This document shows, one piece after another, positions 1-15,628 of a stretch of DNA of 16,004 nt. Source of the DNA: a virus. Taxonomy: Duplodnaviria > Heunggongvirae > Uroviricota > Caudoviricetes. Each line of letters opens with the position of its first letter. Positions within the stretch are counted from its first letter, which is position 1. The translations under genes were made by a program, and so were the position numbers. Where the stretch lies: IMG/VR virus record IMGVR_UViG_2579778633_000006. One strand, 5' to 3'. The notes below the pieces were generated by a model. It was given only the letters and a program-made list of their open reading frames with translations, had not been told where the DNA came from and did no database searches.

Positions 1-474
1 ATGTACAGTCCGGTACAAATAGCCAATAAATTCATAACGTTGGGAAACCAACATCATAATCCTCTGACCCACATGCAACTGCAGAAGCTTACTTATATTG
101 CCCATGGTTACTATTTAGCATTAACAGGTAAGCCTTTGCTCAATGAATGTGTCTCCGCGTGGAAGTACGGTCCAGTTATTCCTGGAATGTACGATGCTTT
201 CAAAGACTATGGGAATAAACCTGTTACGAATGTAGCAGTAGCTCCTTTTGGTGGCATCGTTACTATGGATCCGCAAGCAGAGAGCATTATCGGGGCTGTT
301 TATAAGTTTTACGGCTCGAAAAATGGAATTGAGTTATCAACTCTAACTCATATGCCAGGTACGCCTTGGTCACAAGCTTATAATGGTATTGGCTCGTCGA
401 TCATCTCAAATGATGCGATCAAGGCTTATTATCATGATTTATTGAATAACCGACAGCAATGTCAGGGCCTCTGA
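1..474 (+). CDS. Panacea-domain (DUF4065, SocA/GepA-like) protein; putative antitoxin-type component
   Basis: 157-aa ORF starting at ATG at position 1. Motifs recalled from DUF4065 proteins: LQKLTYIAHGYYLA, AWKYGPV, THMPGTPW. Followed after a 22-nt gap by a co-oriented ORF. Confidence 0.65.
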   Translation: MYSPVQIANKFITLGNQHHNPLTHMQLQKLTYIAHGYYLALTGKPLLNECVSAWKYGPVIPGMYDAFKDYGNKPVTNVAVAPFGGIVTMDPQAESIIGAVYKFYGSKNGIELSTLTHMPGTPWSQAYNGIGSSIISNDAIKAYYHDLLNNRQQCQGL

Positions 475-3243: not shown

Positions 3244-3606
3244 TTAACGACCTGCTGCGCGGAGTTTTCCGTCAGGTTCACCGGCAAGAGTCAGTAATTG
3301 TCCCTGGTCCTCCTGCAGAATAGTCAGGCGACCACCGCGATTGACATACATCGGCGTTTCGGTGGTGTCTTCTTCGGAAATTTTCCCGCGGTTAGTCGGG
3401 CGAACATATGAGAGTTTGTGTTTGATTTTCACACGGTTCTCATCAAATGGTTCGATTTCCAGGTTGAGTGAGACCTTACCTTTGGTTTTCGTGTTCATCA
3501 CACCGGAAGCGACTTCACTGAGAACTGCGCCGATTTTGGTTTCAAATACGCCGCCGTCCAGCTCCCCGATAAATGCCTGCACATCAGTACTGCGTTCGCT
3601 AGCCAT
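3244..3606 (-). CDS. Conserved prophage protein of unknown function (120 aa)
   Basis: Start placed at internal ATG 3604-3606 (MASERSTDVQ...) because GAGGAG (3614-3619, minus strand) sits 7 nt upstream; the longer 197-aa ORF extension has implausible Cys/His/Arg/Pro-rich composition and runs through strong hairpins. Confidence 0.5.
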   Translation of the reverse strand: MASERSTDVQAFIGELDGGVFETKIGAVLSEVASGVMNTKTKGKVSLNLEIEPFDENRVKIKHKLSYVRPTNRGKISEEDTTETPMYVNRGGRLTILQEDQGQLLTLAGEPDGKLRAAGR

Positions 3607-3654
3607 TTTGCTGCTCCTCATCATATCGACCCTGCAAGGTCGGTTGGTTTCTCC

Positions 3655-3789
3655 ACAAAACAGAGAAGAACACCTGCGGTGGCAGCCGCCCGGATGGATT
3701 GGGTTATGAGCCCGTCGTCCGGTGATGCTCTTCTCTGTTTTGTAAAAAGAGCGGTACCAGCCGGAAGCAAGTGTACAAACTGGTACCGC
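3655..3789 (-). other. Tandem stem-loops in the long leader between candidate OL operators and the first leftward gene (possible structured RNA or antitermination-type element)
   Basis: 16-nt inverted repeat with 1 mismatch (3655-3670 ACAAAACAGAGAAGAA vs 3728-3743 CTCTTCTCTGTTTTGT), followed by a perfect 10-bp inverted repeat GCGGTACCAG(3751-3760)/CTGGTACCGC(3780-3789). No convincing ORF in the 666-bp gap 3607-4272. Confidence 0.3.
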
Positions 3790-4189
3790 CAAAGCAGTGG
3801 CTGTTGTGGTGGGGTTGTCACTCAGGCGTATGGTCAACCTGACAATCCGGTGTCCTCAACGGGGAAAGAGTAACCCCGCCATACTTACCGCCGCGCCATT
3901 TCGCGGATTACCACAACGCTGAGAGCACTTAGCCAGTTACGGCACCACACTTTGTCGCGGTTCCATAAATGCCCTCATCGTTGCACCCTGGTCTCTTCCC
4001 AGGCGTCAAACCGGATCGCCACGCTGGTTAGGCGTCTTATCAGCATCATCATTGACTTGCACATTCCGGCTACCTGGTTTGTTTGCCCGAGCAAGGAGTG
4101 GATTGTCCCCTTTAACGTCCCCAGACCGCTAACGACGCATGTGCCATACGCCGTGTTACAACCAAATTTAGTTTAATCTTGCCTGTGTT

Positions 4190-4228
4190 ATGTATCCTAT
4201 AGATACATTATGTATCTTAAGGGTACAT
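4190..4228. promoter_or_regulatory. Two adjacent 7-5-7 palindromic operator-like sites downstream of the repressor gene (OL-like)
   Basis: ATGTATC-ctata-GATACAT (4190-4208) and ATGTATC-ttaag-GGTACAT (4210-4228); same half-site family as the palindromes in the cI/cro intergenic region. Confidence 0.45.
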
Positions 4229-4238
4229 TGTCAAGTAT

Positions 4239-4262
4239 AAAAAAACCTGCCGAAGCAGGTTA
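4239..4262 (-). terminator. Intrinsic terminator downstream of the repressor gene
   Basis: Stem ACCTGC(4245-4250)/GCAGGT(4255-4260) with CGAA loop; A7 run on plus strand (4239-4245) gives a U-run immediately 3' of the hairpin on the minus-strand transcript; 12 nt after the cI-like stop codon. Confidence 0.5.
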
Positions 4263-4272
4263 TAAATATTGA

Positions 4273-4947
4273 TTAGGCCTTTATTTTGTATCTTCTTGGT
4301 TTTCCTGAGAAAATCACTGTACCAATTATAGAGCAATTACCGTTGATCTTAATGTAAGGTTCAGGCCAGTTTGGGTTTAATGCTTTGAGGTAACGCTGTG
4401 TTCCATCTTCTATCAACCGCTTGAAGGTGGTTTCGCCTGTATCGTGCATCAATGCAATAACGTCGTCACCGTGGCAGGCAGGGACTTCAGGATCAACAAA
4501 AATCATGTCTCCCGGGCGGTACTCATCAATCATTGAATCACCAATCACCCGCAAGATATAAGTCATTTCGCCACAGGGTACAGGGCAGGGATAAGTTTCT
4601 GCTGTGCTCAAATCAACCTCAGAATAGCCAACTTCTTTCCATGCTCCGGCCTGTACCCATGATATGACAGGGACTAACGTTATTTGTTTGTTAGTGATTG
4701 AAACGTCAGGTTTTTTTGTGATGTTCGTTGTCTGGTGTTCTTGATCAAGCCATCCGACAGGCAGGTCGAAACATTTTTCGATGTGCCGTGCCATGCTGTC
4801 ACCGATATTTTTAGTTGCACCATCTCCCATAAACCTGCTGGTCTGGGTTGGCTCGCGATCAATCATGGTGGCAAAGGAAGAATTCCCGCCAACACCATCT
4901 CTCAGTTTTCTGGCGTTAGACCGCCGGATGTCATGGACTGTTTTCAT
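4273..4947 (-). CDS. CI-type phage repressor (N-terminal HTH, C-terminal LexA-like S24 peptidase domain)
   Basis: 224-aa ORF; C-terminal VIGDSM (Ser nucleophile context) and downstream FKRL (Lys) typical of autocleaving CI/LexA-family repressors; divergent from a Cro-like gene. Confidence 0.85.
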   Translation of the reverse strand: MKTVHDIRRSNARKLRDGVGGNSSFATMIDREPTQTSRFMGDGATKNIGDSMARHIEKCFDLPVGWLDQEHQTTNITKKPDVSITNKQITLVPVISWVQAGAWKEVGYSEVDLSTAETYPCPVPCGEMTYILRVIGDSMIDEYRPGDMIFVDPEVPACHGDDVIALMHDTGETTFKRLIEDGTQRYLKALNPNWPEPYIKINGNCSIIGTVIFSGKPRRYKIKA

Positions 4948-4963
4948 AAAGAAATTAAAACCT

Positions 4964-5032
4964 TTGTACCGATAAGGTACAAGTATCTTGAAGGTTCATC
5001 TCAATCATGTAATATGTATACCGGAGGTACAT
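4964..5032. promoter_or_regulatory. Immunity switch region: two 7-5-7 operator-like palindromes plus candidate rightward promoter
   Basis: TTGTACC-gataa-GGTACAA (4964-4982) and ATGTATA-ccgga-GGTACAT (5014-5032); candidate -35 TTGAAG (4988-4993) and -10 TAATAT (5010-5015) with 16-nt spacing; the second palindrome overlaps the -10 and the cro RBS. Confidence 0.45.
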
Positions 5033-5037
5033 ATTGT

Positions 5038-5238
5038 ATGAAAGCGTATTGGGACTCTTTAACCAAAGAACAGCAGGGTGAGTTGGCCGGAAAAGTTGGC
5101 TCAACACCAGGCTACTTACGGCTGGTTTTCAATGGTTATAAAAAAGCCAGTTTTGTGCTGGCTAAAAAACTTGAGCAATGCACGTCAGGTGCAATTACGA
5201 AATCTGACTTAAGACCGGATATCTATCCGAAAGATTAA
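5038..5238 (+). CDS. Cro-like small HTH regulator
   Basis: 66-aa reading frame starting at ATG 5038 with GGAGG 10 nt upstream; the longer ORF 4735-5238 is antisense to the repressor gene upstream of this ATG. Divergent from the CI-type repressor. Confidence 0.55.
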   Translation: MKAYWDSLTKEQQGELAGKVGSTPGYLRLVFNGYKKASFVLAKKLEQCTSGAITKSDLRPDIYPKD

Positions 5239-5269: not shown

Positions 5270-5833
5270 ATGAGGCTAACCGTGGGTAAGCATCACTGGA
5301 AAGTAGAAAAACAGCCTGAGTGGTACGTGAAAGCTGTCAGAAAAACTATCGCGGCGTTGCCGGGGGGTTACGCTGAAGCTGCTGAGTGGCTGGATGTAAC
5401 AGAGAACGCTTTATTCAACCGCCTTCGTGCAGATGGCGATCAGATTTTCCCGCTGGGATGGGCAATGATTTTACAGCGCGCGGCTGGCACTCACTACATT
5501 GCGGATGCTGTCGCACAGTCTGCTGGTGGGGTGTTTGTATCGCTTCCTGAAATTGAGGAAGTAGAGAACGCCGATATAAACCAGCGCCTGCTGGAAGTCA
5601 TCGAACAGATCGGGAGTTACTCAAAGCAGATTCGTTCGGCAATCGAAGATGGGGTAGTGGAGCCACACGAGCAGACAGCAATTAATGATGAGTTGTATCT
5701 GTCAATTTCGAAGCTCCAGGAGCATGCAGCACTGGTCTACAAAATCTTTTGCGCTCCAGAAAAGAGTGACGCCCGCGAGTGTGCAGCTCCGGGCGTCGTG
5801 GCGTTTTGTGTCTGTGGAGAAACTAACGCATGA
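5270..5833 (+). CDS. Hypothetical early-operon protein in the CII-like position (possible regulator); start may be GTG at 5282
   Basis: 187-aa ORF directly after cro-like gene; stop overlaps next start (ATGA at 5830-5833). Function not recognisable by eye. Confidence 0.45.
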   Translation: MRLTVGKHHWKVEKQPEWYVKAVRKTIAALPGGYAEAAEWLDVTENALFNRLRADGDQIFPLGWAMILQRAAGTHYIADAVAQSAGGVFVSLPEIEEVENADINQRLLEVIEQIGSYSKQIRSAIEDGVVEPHEQTAINDELYLSISKLQEHAALVYKIFCAPEKSDARECAAPGVVAFCVCGETNA

Positions 5834-6666
5834 ACAGTTTAACGGCAAATAACCGTTTGTCGCAACAGCTGGTGGTCAGTGTCGCTGAACACCTGTTGTT
5901 ACGGCATGAATGCAGATTACCAAATCACCTGGCTGTAAGTAACCACAGAGAACTTTACCTGACTGTGGGGGGCGAGTTGTGCAGGAACTTAACCGCTGGT
6001 TTCGTGACGGAAGAGGGCTTTATGTCCATGTTATTCGTTGGGAGCCAGAAACACAGCGCGTTATCTATCTTCGCAAAGACTACCCGCATGAGTGCTTTAG
6101 TCCTTTGTGGAAATTCAGGCGTGATTTTGTTGAGTGTGAAGGACCACCAGCACATTGATTCTGCCATTCCGGGACGTTACACTGTTCAGGCACCTTATAA
6201 AGCGGGTGCCGGGATTGGCGTCCTGGAAATGTTATCGGCGATATATGACGCGCCAGCGTCTTTTTTATCGTCTGCGTCTGTGCACACCCAAATTATGGTG
6301 GGCTGGACGGGGGCACCGAAAGGTGCGCCGGTTTCCGATAACGCCGGTTACGCCAACCCCGTTCAGTTCACCACCAGCGAAATTGGCGTTTCCGGTGGTG
6401 AAGGTAATTCACTGTTATCGGAGGCTGCCATCATGGCTACTGTCCCAGCCCTCACTCGTCTGAATGATGAAGACTTACATAAACTCAGTTATGTAACAAC
6501 TGCACTACGTGCTCTGCGCAAGGTAACTCTTTCGGATCCGCAGGCGCATCAAGTTCTGGTAGAAACCCTTCTTAACTTGCAGGCTGAACGTATTCGTCTG
6601 GCGGATAAGGCTAATTTTCATATTCACCGTCTCCTGAATATCAGCGGAGGGCATCGTCATGCTTAA
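5830..6666 (+). CDS. Hypothetical protein (278 aa)
   Basis: Translationally coupled at both ends (ATGA overlap at 5830; ATG 6659 overlaps stop 6664-6666, AGCGGAGGG RBS); E. coli-like codon usage. No recognisable motif. Confidence 0.45.
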   Translation: MNSLTANNRLSQQLVVSVAEHLLLRHECRLPNHLAVSNHRELYLTVGGELCRNLTAGFVTEEGFMSMLFVGSQKHSALSIFAKTTRMSALVLCGNSGVILLSVKDHQHIDSAIPGRYTVQAPYKAGAGIGVLEMLSAIYDAPASFLSSASVHTQIMVGWTGAPKGAPVSDNAGYANPVQFTTSEIGVSGGEGNSLLSEAAIMATVPALTRLNDEDLHKLSYVTTALRALRKVTLSDPQAHQVLVETLLNLQAERIRLADKANFHIHRLLNISGGHRHA

Positions 6667-7710: not shown

Positions 7711-8141
7711 TCATGAGTCTTTTGAATGAAGTTCAGAAATACATTGAAGCCCATCCGGGGTGTACTTCCGGAGACATTGCGGATGCTTTTGCAGGTTACT
7801 CACGGCAGCGCGTTCTGCAGTCAGCAAGCAAGTTACGTCAGAGTGGTCGTGTGGCTCACCGTTGTGAAGGGGATACACGCAGACATTTCCCGCGCCTGAC
7901 TGAGAGAGCGCAGGAGGCGGAACCGCAACCAGTTCGTGAAACCAGACCTGTGCGCAATTTCTATGTCGGCACTAACGATCCCCGGGTGATTTTGTGCCTG
8001 ACCCGCCAGGCGGAAGAACTGGAGTCGAGGGGCTTATACCGTCGTGCTGCAACGGTGTGGATGGCGGCATTCCGTGAAAGCCACTCCCAGCCAGAGCGAA
8101 ACAATTTTCTTGCGCGTCGTGAAGGCCGCAAAAACGTCTGA
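7707..8141 (+). CDS. PerC-family-like transcriptional regulator (C-terminal GLYRRAATVW motif), N-terminal winged-helix-like extension
   Basis: 144-aa ORF with ATGA overlap to upstream gene; C-terminal LESRGLYRRAATVWMAAF resembles the LE..GLWRRAA.RW signature I recall for PerC/Pch proteins. Confidence 0.45.
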   Translation: MIMSLLNEVQKYIEAHPGCTSGDIADAFAGYSRQRVLQSASKLRQSGRVAHRCEGDTRRHFPRLTERAQEAEPQPVRETRPVRNFYVGTNDPRVILCLTRQAEELESRGLYRRAATVWMAAFRESHSQPERNNFLARREGRKNV

Positions 8142-10536
8142 GACGAATGCGGATAACAGCGCACAGGCGGCAGCGGCCTCACAAACTGCATCGGCAAACT
8201 CCGCGACAGCAGCCAAAAAATCAGAAACCAACGCGAAAAATAGCGAGGCAGCAGCAAAGAGCAGCGAAACTAATGCTAAATCCAGTGAAACAAACGCGGC
8301 GAAATCTGCAGCGGACGCACTTAATTATCGCAACCAGGCACAATCCGTTGTTGGTAACAATATTGGTCTTGGTGAAGTTGCTATGACCTGCACTGATATC
8401 TCTGTTGAGCCATCAGGTTATATTGGATTTATCAGGATTTACATCTCAGCGAAAGGTTATCCATCAGTAGCGTCTAGTGCCGGGGATAATCTTATTTCTG
8501 GTTATATAGTTAGATCAGAAGTGTCAACAAAAAGATATTCCGGTCTATTTGTTGGTTCAGATACAAAATCATTGTATTCGTACATTTACAGCCAAAGTTC
8601 TGGCCCGCAATGGATACGTCATACCCGCAGAGATGAATTAAGCCGCTTTGGTCAAAATGAATCAACAACTCGTATGTATGGTCCAACTGGTGATCGTTTC
8701 TTTGAAATCCATACTAACGGGAGTTGGGGGGTTTATGATTCTTCTTCTGGACAATGGTCTCCGTTAGGTTTAGCCCAGGGTGGTACTGGTGGAAGAACTA
8801 TCGAGCAAGCACGTGCGAACTTGCGGGTAATGTATGAGCAAAAAGCTGGCCTTGCTAATACTGACCTAAACACCCTTACCGGTGAATATTCTGGTTTCTA
8901 TCAACAACCAACGAGCGCTTACGCAACAGAAGAATTAAATTACCCAATCGGTCTGGCGGGCGCTTTAATAGTGCTCCAAACGAGAGCCAACACTGCTTCT
9001 TCCTGCGTTCAGGTGTACCACCCTTATAATAATCCGGGAATTACTTATAGACGAATATATGAAGGAGGTAGCGGTACCTGGTCTGAATGGAAGAGAGATG
9101 TATCAACAGAAAGGGTTGAAGAGGGAAAAGAAACAACTTACGTATATTCTACGTATTCTTCAGGCGCACCACGCTTACAGGTTTCCAAATCTGGTTTGTG
9201 GGGTTGTCATAATGGCACTGGCTGGTTGCCATTAGCTGTTGGGCAAGGAGGTACAGGTGCGACAACAGTAGAAGATGCGCGAAACAACTTAAGTCTTGGC
9301 GAAAGTAGCGCAGTTAAATTTAAAAACCTTACTTTAACCGAAGCGCTCGACACGACATTAGGACTGCTTACAAAAACAGGACGAGACTGGAACGCTCAGC
9401 ATACTGATAACGTCGACAAATTTAGACCAATTGCAGGCAGTACAAACGGCCCGGCAGGCTCTATGGTTCTTGGCGGCATTCATGTTCAATTTAGTAAAAA
9501 TTATGCTGTGCAGTTCGGAGGCCGCAATTCCGGTTTTTGGGGAAGAACAATTGAAAATGGAACGACGCAGGAATGGAAGAAATTACTAACAGTAGACGAT
9601 CTCAATTCATCTACCGCTCTTGCTGTCAGGTCATTAACCACATCTAACCCGATAAAATCTGGCGGAGGGCGGATTGATGTCCTTGGAAGCACGTCAGACT
9701 ATAGCAAAATGGATTGCTTTGTACGTGGGTTTGATAGCACCGGTAATTCTCTCGCGTGGGCGTTGGGTTCATCAGTCGGCGTAAGTAAGATGCTGTCGCT
9801 AAAAAATTTCTTTAGCGGAGCTGAGATACTGCTAAATGGTAATGACGGCGCGGTTCAACTCAAAACAGGTGCTGTTAACGGTGCTAAAGCGCAGGCGCTC
9901 ACTATCAACAAGGATGAGGTTAACTCAACTGTTGATTTAACTCTTACAAAACAAACAGGGACTGGCAATCGTTTTGTTTTACAGAACTTAGGTAATACAG
10001 AACTACCATTTGCTGTCAAGGTGTGGGGTTCAGGTGATCGACAAAACGTTTTTGAGGTTGGAACGTCTGCCGCGTATCTGTTTTATGCTCAAAAAACATC
10101 GTCAGGTCAGCTGTTTGATGTAAACGGTGCTATTAACTGTACAACACTGAATCAGTTATCAGACCGCGAGCTGAAAGACAATATTCAGATTATCAGTGAC
10201 GCAACCGAAGCTATCCGTAAAATGAACGGGTACACCTACACACTTAAGGAAAACGGACTGCCTTACGCTGGTGTTATTGCACAGGAAGCAATGGAGGCAA
10301 TACCGGAAGCGGTAGGCTCATTCACTCATTACGGTAAAGAGTTGCAGGGACCAACGGTTGACGGCAATGAATTACGTGAAGAAACACGTTATCTGAATGT
10401 TGACTACGCCGCCGTGACGGGCTTACTTGTTCAGGTCGCCCGTGAAACAGATGATCGCGTTACCGCGCTGGAAGAAGAAAACGCAGAATTAAAACAAAGA
10501 TTATCTGCAATTGAGGCGGCGCTTGCCTCTAAATAA
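8125..10536 (+). pseudogene. Tail-fibre gene remnant, 5'-truncated (no start codon in the homologous region), with intact C-terminal intramolecular-chaperone-like domain
   Basis: KTSETNA/KSSETNA repeats as in lambda Stf-type fibres; two GQGGTGA-T-E-AR-NL tail-fibre repeats; C-terminal SDRELKDNI...NGYTY...AELKQRL resembles the autocleaving chaperone domain of fibres/tailspikes. Fibre homology begins in the +1 frame inside the last codons of the PerC-like gene; the only in-frame start upstream is a GTG at 8044 translating unrelated sequence. Confidence 0.6.
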
Positions 10537-10973: not shown

Positions 10974-12350
10974 CTATGATATTCCTGAAATATCCTCTTC
11001 AAGCTCTTTTACTGATTTCGCAATTTTAAATTTAAACTTCCTCTCTATTTCACTATTGCTAAGTTTTTTTTCCTTCTCTTTACCTATCCACATAGAAACA
11101 AGTTCTCGTTTCTGAGATATATGTAGATTGTCAAAGTTAGGTATGTATTTAAAAGTCTCCGCTCTACCTCTGCGGAGTTCATAGAAAGTTTTAATCAAAG
11201 ATTTTGGTTTTATTTCTGATGAAAGGCCGAATCGGCGGATAAGATTATTGATAGTATGATTAACAGAGCGAAGTTGAGCTGTTGAGGTTATTTGTGAGAA
11301 GTACGATACCCATCCCAATCGTTTACCTTCAAACACACATCCCGTAATTCTGAGATTTAGTTTCCACTGACAATATGCAACAGCTCGTTCTTTATCACGC
11401 TTACTTTTAGCTTGTAGTAGAGCGTGCCTATATGCAGTAAAAATTTTTGCTAAGGATGACTCAAATCTAAGAATGCTCTCATGTTTTATCAATAATTCTC
11501 GATTTTCTATGTGGTATCCCAAAAAGTTAAAACTTTCATCCAAACTGCCTACTTTGGATTTTGAGTTCTCTTCATTTAATGGATGTGGGTTTAAATTTAA
11601 TGATTGAAGCTTATCAATGATATGAGAAGCTATTTTTGTTGCTTGATATTTTGGTGTTAAAATAAGAATGTCATCAACGTATCGCATGTACCATATGTCA
11701 TGCATTTTATTGATTTCATCATCGAAATTAGATAGTGATATTTCAGCTAAAATGTTTGATATCGCTAATCCCTGAGGTACTCCTCTGGTATTATTAGGGA
11801 TACCTTTGCTTCCTGTGGTTCCACTTACAGTAGGCACGATTAATGATGATGTTATTAACTGTCTAATTTCTTTTTTTCTAATTTTATTTTTTATTGCATT
11901 AATTATCAATTTATGTTCAATTGAAGGATAGAAACTTTTAAGATCTATTTTTGCATATTCAGCATATAGACTGTTGTTTAATGCTTCTTTCAATGAGTCA
12001 ATTACTGTATGTGGTAGTTTTAATCTGGACTTAGGATATATTTCCGTAAGGCATTCACAGAGAGCTCTAAGAGTAATTCTGTCCCTAGCAGTTGGTATGG
12101 AAATCTGTCTGGGTGTAGAGTTAGCGCCTTTAGATATTAATTTTTCTTTATATGCTGTAAATTTGTAATTGCCAGAATTAACCTTTTCAAAAATGAAAGT
12201 GATCTCATTTTTTATTGTCAAATCAAGTTTTGATGGGCGAATCCGATCTATGCCAATCGCTCCTGATTCTTTGATTTTTTCAGAGTATACTTTTAGAAGA
12301 TTTTTTTTCGAGAATGACTTTTTAAAAATTCTGCTTGCAGTCATAGTCAA
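10974..12350 (-). CDS. Reverse transcriptase (bacterial defence-type RT; retron-like vs UG/Abi-like unresolved), 458 aa with C-terminal extension
   Basis: RT motifs in order: GIDRIRP; RQISIPTARDRITLRAL; IDLKSFYPSIEH; GVPQGLAISNILAEI; YMRYVDDILIL (YxDD catalytic box); FNFLGYHI. AT-rich gene; start overlaps upstream TM-protein gene by ~29 nt. Confidence 0.85.
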   Translation of the reverse strand: MTMTASRIFKKSFSKKNLLKVYSEKIKESGAIGIDRIRPSKLDLTIKNEITFIFEKVNSGNYKFTAYKEKLISKGANSTPRQISIPTARDRITLRALCECLTEIYPKSRLKLPHTVIDSLKEALNNSLYAEYAKIDLKSFYPSIEHKLIINAIKNKIRKKEIRQLITSSLIVPTVSGTTGSKGIPNNTRGVPQGLAISNILAEISLSNFDDEINKMHDIWYMRYVDDILILTPKYQATKIASHIIDKLQSLNLNPHPLNEENSKSKVGSLDESFNFLGYHIENRELLIKHESILRFESSLAKIFTAYRHALLQAKSKRDKERAVAYCQWKLNLRITGCVFEGKRLGWVSYFSQITSTAQLRSVNHTINNLIRRFGLSSEIKPKSLIKTFYELRRGRAETFKYIPNFDNLHISQKRELVSMWIGKEKEKKLSNSEIERKFKFKIAKSVKELEEDISGIS

Positions 12351-12873
12351 TCCAAAGATATATTAATGGGAGTATATAAAGTGCGGCAGTAATAAATATT
12401 CGAAGTAATATCCATAAAATAACAATTATTTTTTCTTTTTGTGTGGGGATCCTCGTCTTAAGTCCAACTTGAGTTACCCTTGAAATTTTATCATCTATGT
12501 CACGGTGATTCTCAACCTCATTGAGCAAATTAAAATATTTTTCTTTCTGTTCAAGAGATAACTGTTGACTGGTGGTAATGTCAAAATAGAGTCGCTGTAG
12601 TGCAATATAATTCCTTCTCATGGCTATTGCTCGACCACGAAAATCTAGGTTAGATACGATCAGAGAAATACCCAGTAGAGCCACTGAAAGTATCGCCGCA
12701 ACGACATCTGTATTATCTCCTAGAACCTTTGGAAATCGCAACGTTACAATTGAAAGTACCGCACTCAATATAGCATACCAAACGAGGATAAATTGAGAGT
12801 GTTTTTCAAGCCATTCTAGTCGATGGTGCGCTTGGATACGTGCTTTATATGTAAACCAAATATTGTCATGCAT
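12322..12873 (-). CDS. Multi-TM small protein, SLATT-like (putative membrane effector of the RT system)
   Basis: 183-aa ORF; AGGA RBS 5-8 nt upstream of ATG 12871-12873; hydrophobic helices FILVWYAILSAVLSIVTL, VVAAILSVALLGISLIVS and C-terminal IIVILWILLRIFITAALYILPLIYLW separated by a charged helical region; 3' end overlaps RT start. Confidence 0.6.
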   Translation of the reverse strand: MHDNIWFTYKARIQAHHRLEWLEKHSQFILVWYAILSAVLSIVTLRFPKVLGDNTDVVAAILSVALLGISLIVSNLDFRGRAIAMRRNYIALQRLYFDITTSQQLSLEQKEKYFNLLNEVENHRDIDDKISRVTQVGLKTRIPTQKEKIIVILWILLRIFITAALYILPLIYLWIDYDCKQNF

Positions 12874-13358: not shown

Positions 13359-13402
13359 CTGTATTTGTATACAGTATTATTTTTAACTGTATGGATAAAC
13401 AG
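13359..13402. promoter_or_regulatory. Two tandem LexA (SOS) boxes upstream of the dinI-family gene
   Basis: CTGT-ATTTGTAT-ACAG (13359-13374) and CTGT-ATGGATAA-ACAG (13387-13402); both fit CTGT-N8-ACAG; located 15-58 bp upstream of the dinI start, overlapping the 3' flank of the integrase stop. Confidence 0.7.
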
Positions 13403-13404
13403 TG

Positions 13405-14502
13405 TCAAGAGGTCTTATTTCTGCTCCTTTGGAGTTCTTCAAAACGATTATGTAAAGATTTCGGATACAGTTCGGTATATACCTGCCATAGCACGTTTAA
13501 TGAACGATGCCCTGTAACCTGAGCGACTTCCTCAATACTAAAACCAGCCTCAAATAAGCGACTTGCCCCTTCTCTACGCAAATCATGGTATCTCAGATCT
13601 TTAATACCTAATTTGCTTCTTACCCTCTGAAATCCTGCGGTAACAGAAGTGCTGTTATATGGAAAAATGAATTCTGATTTTTTGGGTTGTCGCTGGACGA
13701 TATCCCAGGCTTCCCCAAGCAAGGCAACTTTCATATGGTTGCCTTCCTTTTTACGTGGATCTTTCCTGTCTCTTACTAGTATAGATTTTTGTTCCTGGTC
13801 GAGATCTTCCCATCGTAACCGGCATACTTCTCCGATTCGCATACAGGACCACACAGAAAATTTGAGGATATCAACGAACGGAATTTTTGAGCATTTATGA
13901 GTAGATCGTTGTTGAAGGCCTTCAATGAGCATGTTCAGTTCATCAGATGCTGGTCTACGATTACGACGGTTTGATTTACCAATCAAACCGAGTTTAAGTA
14001 GATATGGACGAGCGCTTTTCGCCGGGTTTGATGTGTAATTGATTCCGTATACAGGTTTTGCCGCATCCAGAACACTGCCAAGATAACTAACATCGTGGCT
14101 GACTGTTGCTGGGCCTGCACCAGCGTTGTTTCTTAGCCTGCAATGTTCAATTACGTCATTTTCTGTCAGTTCAGATAGTTTGATCGCGGAGATGTCACTA
14201 TCCATAAGCAGTTCCAGCACATATCTTTTAGTACGGCCTGCTTTACCTCCGGCATTTGGGTCATTTAAATATTTGTGTAGTAAGTCACGGACTGTAAGTC
14301 CGTCAACAGCATTTGATGATGGAATGCCATATAGATCTAATTCCATCACTTTCTGTGCGCCCCATGTTTTGGCATGAGCATGTTTAGGGAATGTTTTGCT
14401 TTCCCTGTAAGTGATAACACCTTTTTCTTTGATAATCACATTACAGCGATAGCGTGGTGTGCCATCGGATTTTAGTCGTTTCTCTATGTTATAGTACGCC
14501 AT
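13405..14502 (-). CDS. int: Tyrosine-type site-specific integrase (phage integrase family), adjacent to and divergent from dusA
   Basis: 365-aa ORF; C-terminal catalytic signatures MRIGEVCRLRWEDLD (Arg), YHDLRREGASRL (HxxR), GHRSLNVLWQVYTEL (His/Trp and Tyr). Confidence 0.9.
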   Translation of the reverse strand: MAYYNIEKRLKSDGTPRYRCNVIIKEKGVITYRESKTFPKHAHAKTWGAQKVMELDLYGIPSSNAVDGLTVRDLLHKYLNDPNAGGKAGRTKRYVLELLMDSDISAIKLSELTENDVIEHCRLRNNAGAGPATVSHDVSYLGSVLDAAKPVYGINYTSNPAKSARPYLLKLGLIGKSNRRNRRPASDELNMLIEGLQQRSTHKCSKIPFVDILKFSVWSCMRIGEVCRLRWEDLDQEQKSILVRDRKDPRKKEGNHMKVALLGEAWDIVQRQPKKSEFIFPYNSTSVTAGFQRVRSKLGIKDLRYHDLRREGASRLFEAGFSIEEVAQVTGHRSLNVLWQVYTELYPKSLHNRFEELQRSRNKTS

Positions 14503-14590: not shown

Positions 14591-15628
14591 ATGCACGATA
14601 ATCCTGAAACACAGAAAACTAATCAAACCAGCGTGATGCCTGAAAAAACTGGCGCTTACTGGAGTTCTCGGTTTAGCATTGCTCCTATGCTCGACTGGAC
14701 GGACAGACATTGCCGCTATTTCTTGCGTCTGCTTTCCCGCAATACGTTGCTGTATACCGAAATGGTGACCACAGGGGCGATTATTCACGGTAAAGGTGAT
14801 TACCTGGCGTACAGTGAAGAAGAACATCCGGTAGCGTTGCAACTCGGCGGTAGCGATCCGGCGGCGCTGGCACAGTGTGCGAAGCTGGCAGAAGCGCGTG
14901 GATATGATGAGATCAACCTGAATGTCGGCTGCCCGTCTGACCGGGTGCAGAACGGCATGTTTGGTGCGTGTCTGATGGGTAATGCGCAGCTGGTTGCCGA
15001 CTGCGTGAAAGCGATGCGCGATGTGGTGTCGATTCCAGTGACGGTGAAAACGCGTATTGGCATCGATGACCAGGACAGCTATGAATTTCTCTGCGATTTC
15101 ATCAACACCGTTTCCGGCAAAGGCGAGTGTGAGATGTTTATCATCCACGCACGTAAAGCCTGGCTTTCGGGGTTAAGCCCGAAAGAAAACCGTGAAATCC
15201 CGCCGCTCGATTATCCGCGTGTGTATCAACTGAAGCGTGACTTTCCGCATCTGACAATGTCGATTAACGGTGGTATCAAGTCGCTGGAAGAGGCCAAAGC
15301 ACACCTGCAACATATGGATGGCGTGATGGTCGGGCGCGAGGCGTATCAGAATCCGGGTATTCTGGCGGCGGTAGACCGGGAGATCTTTGGTTCCTCGGAT
15401 ACCGATGCCGATCCAGTGGCGGTAGTGCGCGCCATGTATCCGTACATTGAGCGTGAACTCAGCCAGGGGACGTATCTCGGCCATATTACCCGGCATATGT
15501 TGGGCTTGTTCCAGGGTATTCCTGGCGCGCGGCAGTGGCGGCGTTATTTAAGTGAAAATGCCCATAAAGCGGGTGCAGACATTAATGTGCTGGAACACGC
15601 GCTCAAACTGGTGGCGGATAAGCGTTAA
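14591..15628 (+). CDS. dusA: tRNA-dihydrouridine synthase A
   Basis: 345-aa ORF with conserved Dus-family sequence ([30 protein letters not shown], catalytic Cys region); followed by pspG as in E. coli. The 5' end may be element-derived; true start may lie downstream of 14591. Confidence 0.9.

Follow-up and report, generated by a model that had tools for sequence, protein, structure and literature searches.

Five palindromes as probable operators in the e14/SfV-type immunity region of a 16-kb viral DNA stretch

The subject of this analysis is the immunity region of a viral DNA stretch of 16,004 nucleotides (Caudoviricetes; IMG/VR record IMGVR_UViG_2579778633_000006; the whole stretch is hereafter called the window), in which a cI-type repressor gene and a cro-like gene diverge from each other and five related 19-bp palindromes, with the core TGTAYC-N5-GRTACA, lie on either side of the repressor gene. 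We consider it very likely that these five sites are the operators of a lambdoid immunity region of the type present in the cryptic prophage e14 and in phage SfV, their binding by the repressor being a prediction. The region almost certainly represents an ordinary lambda-style switch, in which the repressor shuts off two early promoters by means of the five sites. An earlier reading of the same DNA, made from the letters alone (the original prediction), had described four palindromes, split into an OR-like pair and an OL-like pair. The four were all found in the sequence read, at 4190-4208, 4210-4228, 4964-4982 and 5014-5032, but the right operator proved to be a triplet, a fifth related site at 4981-4999 having been overlooked, so that two left sites and three right sites give a 3 + 2 count.

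The scores of the sites were obtained with a weight matrix built solely from other species. On the left, the site distal to cI (4190-4208, ATGTATC-CTATA-GATACAT) is a perfect palindrome of 22.7 bits, and the site proximal to cI (4210-4228, ATGTATC-TTAAG-GGTACAT), with 6 of the 7 arm positions complementary, reaches 25.4 bits. On the right, the OR3-like site adjoining cI (4964-4982, TTGTACC-GATAA-GGTACAA, 23.8 bits) is again a perfect palindrome, and the OR1-like site adjoining cro (5014-5032, ATGTATA-CCGGA-GGTACAT) scores 20.5 bits. The weaker, OR2-like site between them (4981-4999, AAGTATC-TTGAA-GGTTCAT; 2 mismatches, 9.3 bits) was first exposed by a mismatch-tolerant pattern search, and it was recovered independently by a repeat finder, which placed it in one family (D2) with both left sites. 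The consensus proposed earlier, aTGTAyC-N5-GrTACAt, was a little too strict; it fails at position 7 of the cro-proximal site, which is A and not C, and the cI-proximal right site has T/A at the outer positions. The conserved 6-bp blocks of each palindrome are 11 bp, i.e., one helical turn, apart, so that a dimer of the repressor would bind along a single face of the double helix. The centre-to-centre spacing is 17 and 33 bp in the right operator and 20 bp in the left; the sites paired at 33 bp (right) and at 20 bp (left) are in helical phase, and the middle and cI-proximal sites, which abut at 17 bp, are out of phase.

The strict pattern WTGTAY-N7-RTACAW was matched four times in the 16,004 bp (both strands), with 0.04 matches expected, and in none of 200 dinucleotide shuffles were four matches obtained. 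As the earlier reading had it, the motif search of the whole element confined the four strict palindromes to the two operator regions. With the weight matrix, exactly five sites of at least 8 bits were present in the window, versus 0.43 expected. A further pattern match at 1195-1213, with 2 mismatches and one arm only, scored below 8 bits and was taken as chance. That the palindromes themselves might be accidents of AT-rich intergenic DNA has the base composition of these regions in its favor and nothing further, and the excess over expectation, together with the conservation of the positions in 28 other species (see below), leaves this explanation with a negligible probability.

The assignment of the flanking open reading frames as repressor and cro genes was borne out by their domains. 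The repressor gene (4273-4947, minus strand) encodes a protein of 224 aa with an N-terminal helix-turn-helix domain (residues 1-70), a linker and an S24 autopeptidase domain (Pfam Peptidase_S24, E 1.5e-26). The motifs VQAGAW, GDSM and FKR are conserved, and a self-cleaving domain with an Ala-Gly site and a Ser/Lys dyad is predicted. The C-terminal domain resembles that of lambda cI (1f39 and 1kca, E 1.9e-9; Foldseek, 1e-6 to 1e-7). The Pfam scan gave no helix-turn-helix family on the N-terminal domain; in the AlphaFold model its 75 residues form a four-helix helix-turn-helix fold (predicted local distance difference test, pLDDT, 85), and the best PDB match of this model was SPC32H Rep (5d50; TM-score 0.81-0.84, 35% identity), followed by HTH_3-type regulators. 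The recognition helix would correspond to residues 33-40 approximately (PTQTSRFM), of which T34, Q35, S37 and R38 vary hardly or not at all across the family. The cro-like gene (5038-5238, plus strand; 66 aa) is the equivalent of ymfT of e14 and encodes a Cro-like helix-turn-helix protein with weak matches to both YdaS_toxin and HTH_3 in Pfam. These divergent genes are separated by a gap of 90 bp, inside which the three related right sites are found, and a CII-family gene (Phage_CP76) and an Ash-family gene follow downstream of cro.

The layout originally likened to the lambda OR and OL regions was supported when promoters and terminators were mapped around the sites. A Rho-independent terminator of the repressor gene (4244-4261, minus strand; a 7-bp stem and then a T run) precedes the two left sites, which are indeed downstream of it; the SfV and Ayreon records also annotate a repressor-gene terminator. 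Directly after this terminator there is a leftward early promoter (PL-like; 4207-4234, minus strand) that matches the sigma-70 consensus at 11 of 12 positions, with TTGACA (4234-4229) and CATAAT (4212-4207) separated by 16 nt. The left site proximal to cI (4210-4228) fills the spacer between these two hexamers, and the distal one (4190-4208) spans about -9 to +11. Both hexamers are kept in all the Enterobacterales relatives, the arrangement of promoter and left sites being conserved in the relatives, and in the record of phage Ayreon a promoter is annotated over the equivalent of the left pair. This promoter feature is the only one seen in the public records; an annotation of the left pair as operators was not seen there.

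In the gap between cI and cro two further promoters were placed by eye and by conservation; the promoter scan did not list them. The inferred rightward early promoter (PR-like; 4988-5015, plus strand) consists of TTGAAG (4988-4993), 16 nt, and TAATAT (5010-5015), an 8/12 match, which falls short of the cut-off of the promoter scan, and its -35 TTG and its -10 (TAATAT or CATAAT) are kept in relatives. The -35 hexamer falls inside the spacer of the middle site (4981-4999), and the cro-proximal site (5014-5032) covers the edge of the -10 and the start; the ribosome-binding site of cro, GGAGG (5024-5028), lies within the spacer and arm of the same site. It had been proposed that a -35/-10 pair for rightward transcription overlaps the second OR-like site, which holds for the -10, though by 2 bp only, and does not hold for the -35. 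The inferred maintenance promoter (PRM-like; 4954-4982, minus strand) has TTGTAC (4982-4977), 17 nt, and TTTAAT (4959-4954), with the predicted start at about the A of the repressor ATG (4947), which would yield a leaderless mRNA. A TAAT motif 7-8 nt before this ATG is conserved in relatives. The site at 4964-4982 covers -17 to -35 of this promoter, and the centre of the middle site (4990) is 43 bp upstream of its inferred start. The placement is supported by the mapping of transcription start sites in K-12 by differential RNA-seq, in which ymfK, the e14 repressor gene, is among only five leaderless E. coli mRNAs (PMC4681348).

A comparative footprint supported the view that these palindromes are protein-binding sites. 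A genome scan with the alignment of repressor homologues gave 47 loci (L numbers below), and the footprint set comprised 28 loci from other species (Enterobacterales and Halomonadaceae), whose repressors are 100-40% identical. The related-prophage search suggested by the original prediction thus recovered the same sites in 28 relatives at the same, fixed offsets, namely 85, 52 and 35 bp before the repressor ATG and 44-61 bp past its stop, with spacings of 33, 17 and 20 bp between sites. Of 69 strict sites in 180 kb, all but one were at these offsets, and the exception is a displaced left operator (L032). Information content at the cI-proximal right site (29 loci) is 1.84 bits per position in the arms versus 0.32 in the spacer, with 24 different spacers and 6 arm variants, and at the cI-proximal left site (24 loci) the values are 1.92 and 0.45 bits, with 19 spacers and 2 arm variants. 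The cro-proximal site has arms of 1.69 bits and a spacer that is partly fixed (TCC, i.e., GGA on the cro strand) because of the ribosome-binding site of cro, and the spacer of the middle site is partly conserved because of the -35 TTG. The C/G at positions 7/13, which the search pattern left unconstrained, was C in 121 of 138 half-sites. The middle site was found at the same offset, with distances of 17 bp to OR3 and 33 bp to OR1, in 16 relatives at a threshold of 9 bits, and is visible in the others. The cI-distal left site has in most relatives retained its promoter-side arm alone (ATGTACC), the far arm being GAAACA-like. The Halomonadaceae keep the right operator, and their left-type sites are located 730-1530 bp beyond cI, distant from it as the lambda left sites are beyond rexAB. 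Conserved arms with free spacers at fixed offsets are the pattern expected of protein-binding operators, and the fixed positions across genera support the claim that the binding specificity could be predicted from the sequence.

The same comparison bears on the possibility that the palindromes act as hairpins in RNA or DNA (terminators or processing sites). A terminator scan did list 4982-4964 on the minus strand as terminator-like (a 7-bp stem, then AGGTTTTAAT). Pairing alone, however, would not demand the common arm sequence found in all five sites and across species, and in 9 of 24 relatives the cI-proximal left site has a C at position 6 opposite an A at position 14, which is uncompensated. 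Moreover, relatives have no T run in place of the T-rich tail after 4964, which aligns in them with the conserved TAAT of the -10 element, and the remaining four sites are without a T tail. The terminator reading of 4964-4982 was thus rejected, since arm sequence rather than pairing is conserved and the T run is not kept, and there is very little chance that hairpin formation explains the palindromes. Rfam at gathering thresholds gave no matches in 4100-5100.

By its sequence, the region of the window is the immunity module of e14, SfV, cdtI and Stx2c-converting phages. It shares 96-98% DNA identity with phage cdtI, Stx2c-converting phages, Ayreon, 2H10, SfV and SfIV; with SfV and e14 this level holds between the left operator and a point past cro. 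Of the 224 repressor residues, 223 agree with YmfK of the cryptic K-12 prophage e14, with which the right operator shares 98% identity, and Cro is 98-100% identical to the type members (e14/SfV). The RefSeq names of the two genes are ymfK (repressor) and ymfT (cro), and 1324 of 5426 complete E. coli genomes carry the module. The right operator was already flagged in the 2002 GenBank record of SfV (U82619), where a 'putative operator region' at 26377-26445 maps exactly onto positions 4964-5032 of the window. The members differ in detail: spacer bases of SfV/e14 and of the window are different at several sites, and the cI-distal left site reads TTGTTTC-TCTTG-GGTACAT in SfV/e14 and ATGTTTC-TTTTA-GATACAT in cdtI, whereas the copy in the window, one base off the cdtI version, is a perfect palindrome. 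The homology with SfV/e14 stops at about 4177-4190, at or adjoining this cI-distal site, which marks a mosaic junction where the immunity module ends. Just past the leftward promoter, SfV, e14 and many relatives from other genera (L001, L004, L007-L017) carry a conserved non-coding block (CAGGCAGGACGCCCACGAAGTAGCCGCC...), a block that the window and cdtI do not have.

Which protein reads the motif was approached through homologues that share only part of the repressor. Proteins from Pseudomonas (L038), Pseudomonas phage 5400 (L053) and Amphritea (L046) match the repressor over the N-terminal 70-80 residues only, which is the part compared, with 47-58% identity, and their loci carry the same sites with the same spacing. 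In the Pseudomonas phage 5400 locus, two CTGTATATACA(G/A) palindromes take the place of TGTAC-type left-operator sites past the CI stop (2320-2390), the right operator there being of the TGTAC type. The H-19B cI is 42% identical in the N-terminal domain, with the recognition helix SQLTQ versus TQTSR in the YmfK-type family, and in the H-19B intergenic region no TGTAC-type sites were found; repeats of the TTATC type are present there instead, and H-19B was used as a contrast in specificity only.

The Cro-like protein alone, LexA or a host regulator, rather than the S24 repressor, might nevertheless be the reader. A Cro homologue accompanies the repressor N-terminal domain in every motif-positive locus, so co-occurrence does not single out cI and cannot separate it from Cro. 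On the other hand, lysogeny needs a repressor that shuts both early promoters, on which no other repeated motif was found; furthermore, the motif persists where only the N-terminal domain of the repressor is common to the proteins, and in H-19B motif and recognition helix have both changed. As for LexA, its boxes (CTGT-N8-ACAG) differ in spacing, since the sites described here have TGT and ACA 11 bp apart and not 8, and the only matches in the window, at 5933, 13359 and 13387, lie outside the operator regions, with none in 4100-5100; the LexA-box reading was discarded. It is therefore improbable that a protein other than the S24 repressor is the sole reader, and the repressor and Cro probably both read the same sites, by analogy with lambda.

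Together with the constant company of Cro, a few other observations weigh against the five sites being operators of this repressor. The rightward (8/12) and maintenance (3/6 plus 5/6) promoters resemble the consensus only weakly. At 9.3 bits the middle site fits the motif poorly, and its conservation is partly due to the -35 hexamer within it. The right site with the best consensus sits over the maintenance promoter, unlike the lambda order of repressor affinities. The searchable literature yielded no binding experiment for this repressor or for Cro, and no clear upstream sites were detected, at a 9-bit threshold, for Thiomicrospira/Hydrogenovibrio proteins with the same TQVSR helix. These latter proteins (L039-L044, L047) are short (128-175 aa) and have the same N-terminal domain and no S24 domain; at two of the loci (L040 and L042) single hits occur 3-17 bp after the gene.

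In the lambda-style switch that we favor, dimers of the cI-type repressor would bind the sites through the N-terminal helix-turn-helix domain. The left sites, which occupy the spacer and the -10/+1 region of the strong leftward promoter, would block leftward transcription, and the rightward promoter would be repressed from the cro-proximal site, over its -10/+1, and from the middle site, over its -35. Because the middle site is placed as lambda OR2, from which cI activates PRM, the maintenance promoter may be activated from it, and the cI-proximal site, over the -35 and spacer of that promoter, would allow its shut-off by Cro or by excess repressor. Upon induction, RecA-stimulated self-cleavage of the repressor, whose Ala-Gly site, Ser and Lys are conserved, would free all the sites. 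Direct observation covers the existence of the sites, their statistical excess, their position on promoter elements, their operator-like conservation and their co-occurrence with the N-terminal domain; the pairing of proteins with sites and the affinities, cooperativity, looping and any activation by way of the middle site are inferred here.

Looping, which the original prediction had brought in, would add to this explanation rather than replace it. By analogy with lambda, repressor tetramers on the left and right clusters could join as an octamer, forming a loop of about 0.8 kb that tightens repression and fills the cI-proximal site. The clusters are 736-833 bp apart, the C-terminal domain of the repressor is homologous to the domain of lambda cI that forms tetramers and octamers, and the spacings of 20 bp (left) and 33 bp (right) keep the paired sites in helical phase. 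However, the offset of the left operator from cI is 44-61 bp in close relatives and 0.7-2.2 kb in others, so that no geometry is conserved, and the left operator is needed simply for repression of the leftward promoter, which means that its presence does not imply a loop. In phage 933W a repressor-mediated loop is reported to play no part in PRM control. Taken together, we regard cooperation between the two clusters as possible, although somewhat doubtful.

Several other features of the window were recorded. Downstream of the cro- and cII-like genes, Rfam gave two matches above the gathering score, isrK (6190-6266, plus strand, 63.7 bits) and C4 antisense RNA (6291-6378, plus strand, 82.8 bits), within or overlapping the Ash-family open reading frame (5830-6666); the SfV equivalent, orf37, is labeled 'immunity region', and this segment looks like a second immunity layer of the P1/P7 immI type. 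Past the leftward promoter, about 590 nt (3607-4199, minus strand) are without a convincing open reading frame before the first leftward gene (ATG at 3606), and no N-like gene was seen in this region downstream of the promoter; a GC-rich hairpin followed by a T run (GCGGTACCAG...CTGGTACCGC TCTTTTT) lies within it at about 3795-3745. At the left edge of the window (1-474, plus strand) there is an open reading frame with a SocA/Panacea antitoxin domain, and an 830-aa open reading frame (8044-10536, plus strand) with a C-terminal Peptidase_S74 domain (endosialidase chaperone) directly follows the replication and PerC-like genes.

Toward the integrase end of the element, a UG17 reverse transcriptase gene (PADLOC RT_UG17, E 1e-158) adjoins a SLATT-domain partner (RTasSLATT, E 1.5e-56) at 10974-12873 (minus strand), and judged by these domains the two genes are an anti-phage defence pair of the DRT type. 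The pattern CTGT-N8-ACAG occurs three times in the window, versus 0.21 expected, and two of these LexA-box matches, 12 bp apart (CTGTATTTGTATACAG at 13359-13374 and CTGTATGGATAAACAG at 13387-13402), are upstream of a DinI-family gene (13344-13096, minus strand), with a minus-strand TTGACA just upstream of the first box; from these sequence elements, this dinI-like gene is predicted to be SOS-controlled. The gene for a tyrosine integrase (13405-14502, minus strand) and one for a dihydrouridine synthase (14591-15628; Pfam Dus) abut each other, which suggests integration at a dus gene. The integrase is on the same side as the replication genes, unlike the usual lambda prophage order, and the 16-kb stretch may thus be a cut-down prophage or two adjacent elements.

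In the searchable literature YmfK is listed only as a putative SOS-sensitive repressor. For this repressor, which serves a very common E. coli/Shigella immunity type (e14, SfV, SfIV, cdtI and Stx2c phages), the analysis offers a testable operator consensus together with a map of the sites. These could help to predict cross-immunity among Stx2c, Cdt and serotype-converting phages, and derepression mutants or reporters could be designed from them. A broader proposal, which we offer with low confidence, is that the YmfK-type N-terminal domain defines a distinct operator-specificity class (TGTAYC-N5-GRTACA) that extends from Enterobacterales to Pseudomonas, Halomonadaceae and Amphritea, and that its non-lambda geometry could give a different switch logic, e.g., dominant negative autoregulation, or pairwise cooperativity that is hard-wired instead of alternate. 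If true, this would also yield the first defined binding site for a K-12 transcription factor for which none was found on record. Conceptually, the region is one more lambda-like switch, which is not surprising and leaves the general understanding of such switches unchanged.

The likeness to lambda is extensive. In both systems cI and cro diverge, and left sites lie on PL just past the transcription unit of the repressor. The three right sites overlap PR and PRM in lambda and the putative counterparts of these promoters in the window. Leaderless transcription of cI and self-cleavage of an S24 repressor, both predicted for the window, are likewise common to the two, and the centre of the middle site is about 42-43 bp upstream of the PRM start. 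The differences concern the sites and their geometry. The lambda sites are 17 bp long and of the TATCACCGC type, whereas those of the window are 19 bp long and of the TGTAYC-N5-GRTACA type, and neighbouring centres, 23-24 bp apart in lambda, are 17 and 33 bp apart in the right operator of the window and 20 bp apart in its left operator. The window has only two left sites, unlike lambda, its left and right clusters are 0.75 kb apart rather than 2.4 kb, its best-consensus right site adjoins cI, again unlike lambda, and the N-terminal domain of its repressor is not detectably lambda-like in sequence.

Three other phages complete the comparison. Phage 933W, as described in PMC8065619 with reference to Tyler et al. 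2004, has three OR and two OL sites, and is therefore like the window in the 3 + 2 site count and unlike it in repressor and operator sequence. SPC32H Rep has a homologous N-terminal DNA-binding domain and is reported to bind palindromic sites (PMC9638917), but it lacks an S24 domain, its inactivation being the work of an antirepressor, and its recognition helix reads NLVNRW versus TQTSRF in the YmfK-type family. Finally, the cI of the Stx1 phage H-19B pairs a homologous N-terminal domain, with the helix SQLTQV, with repeats of the TTATC rather than the TGTAC type.

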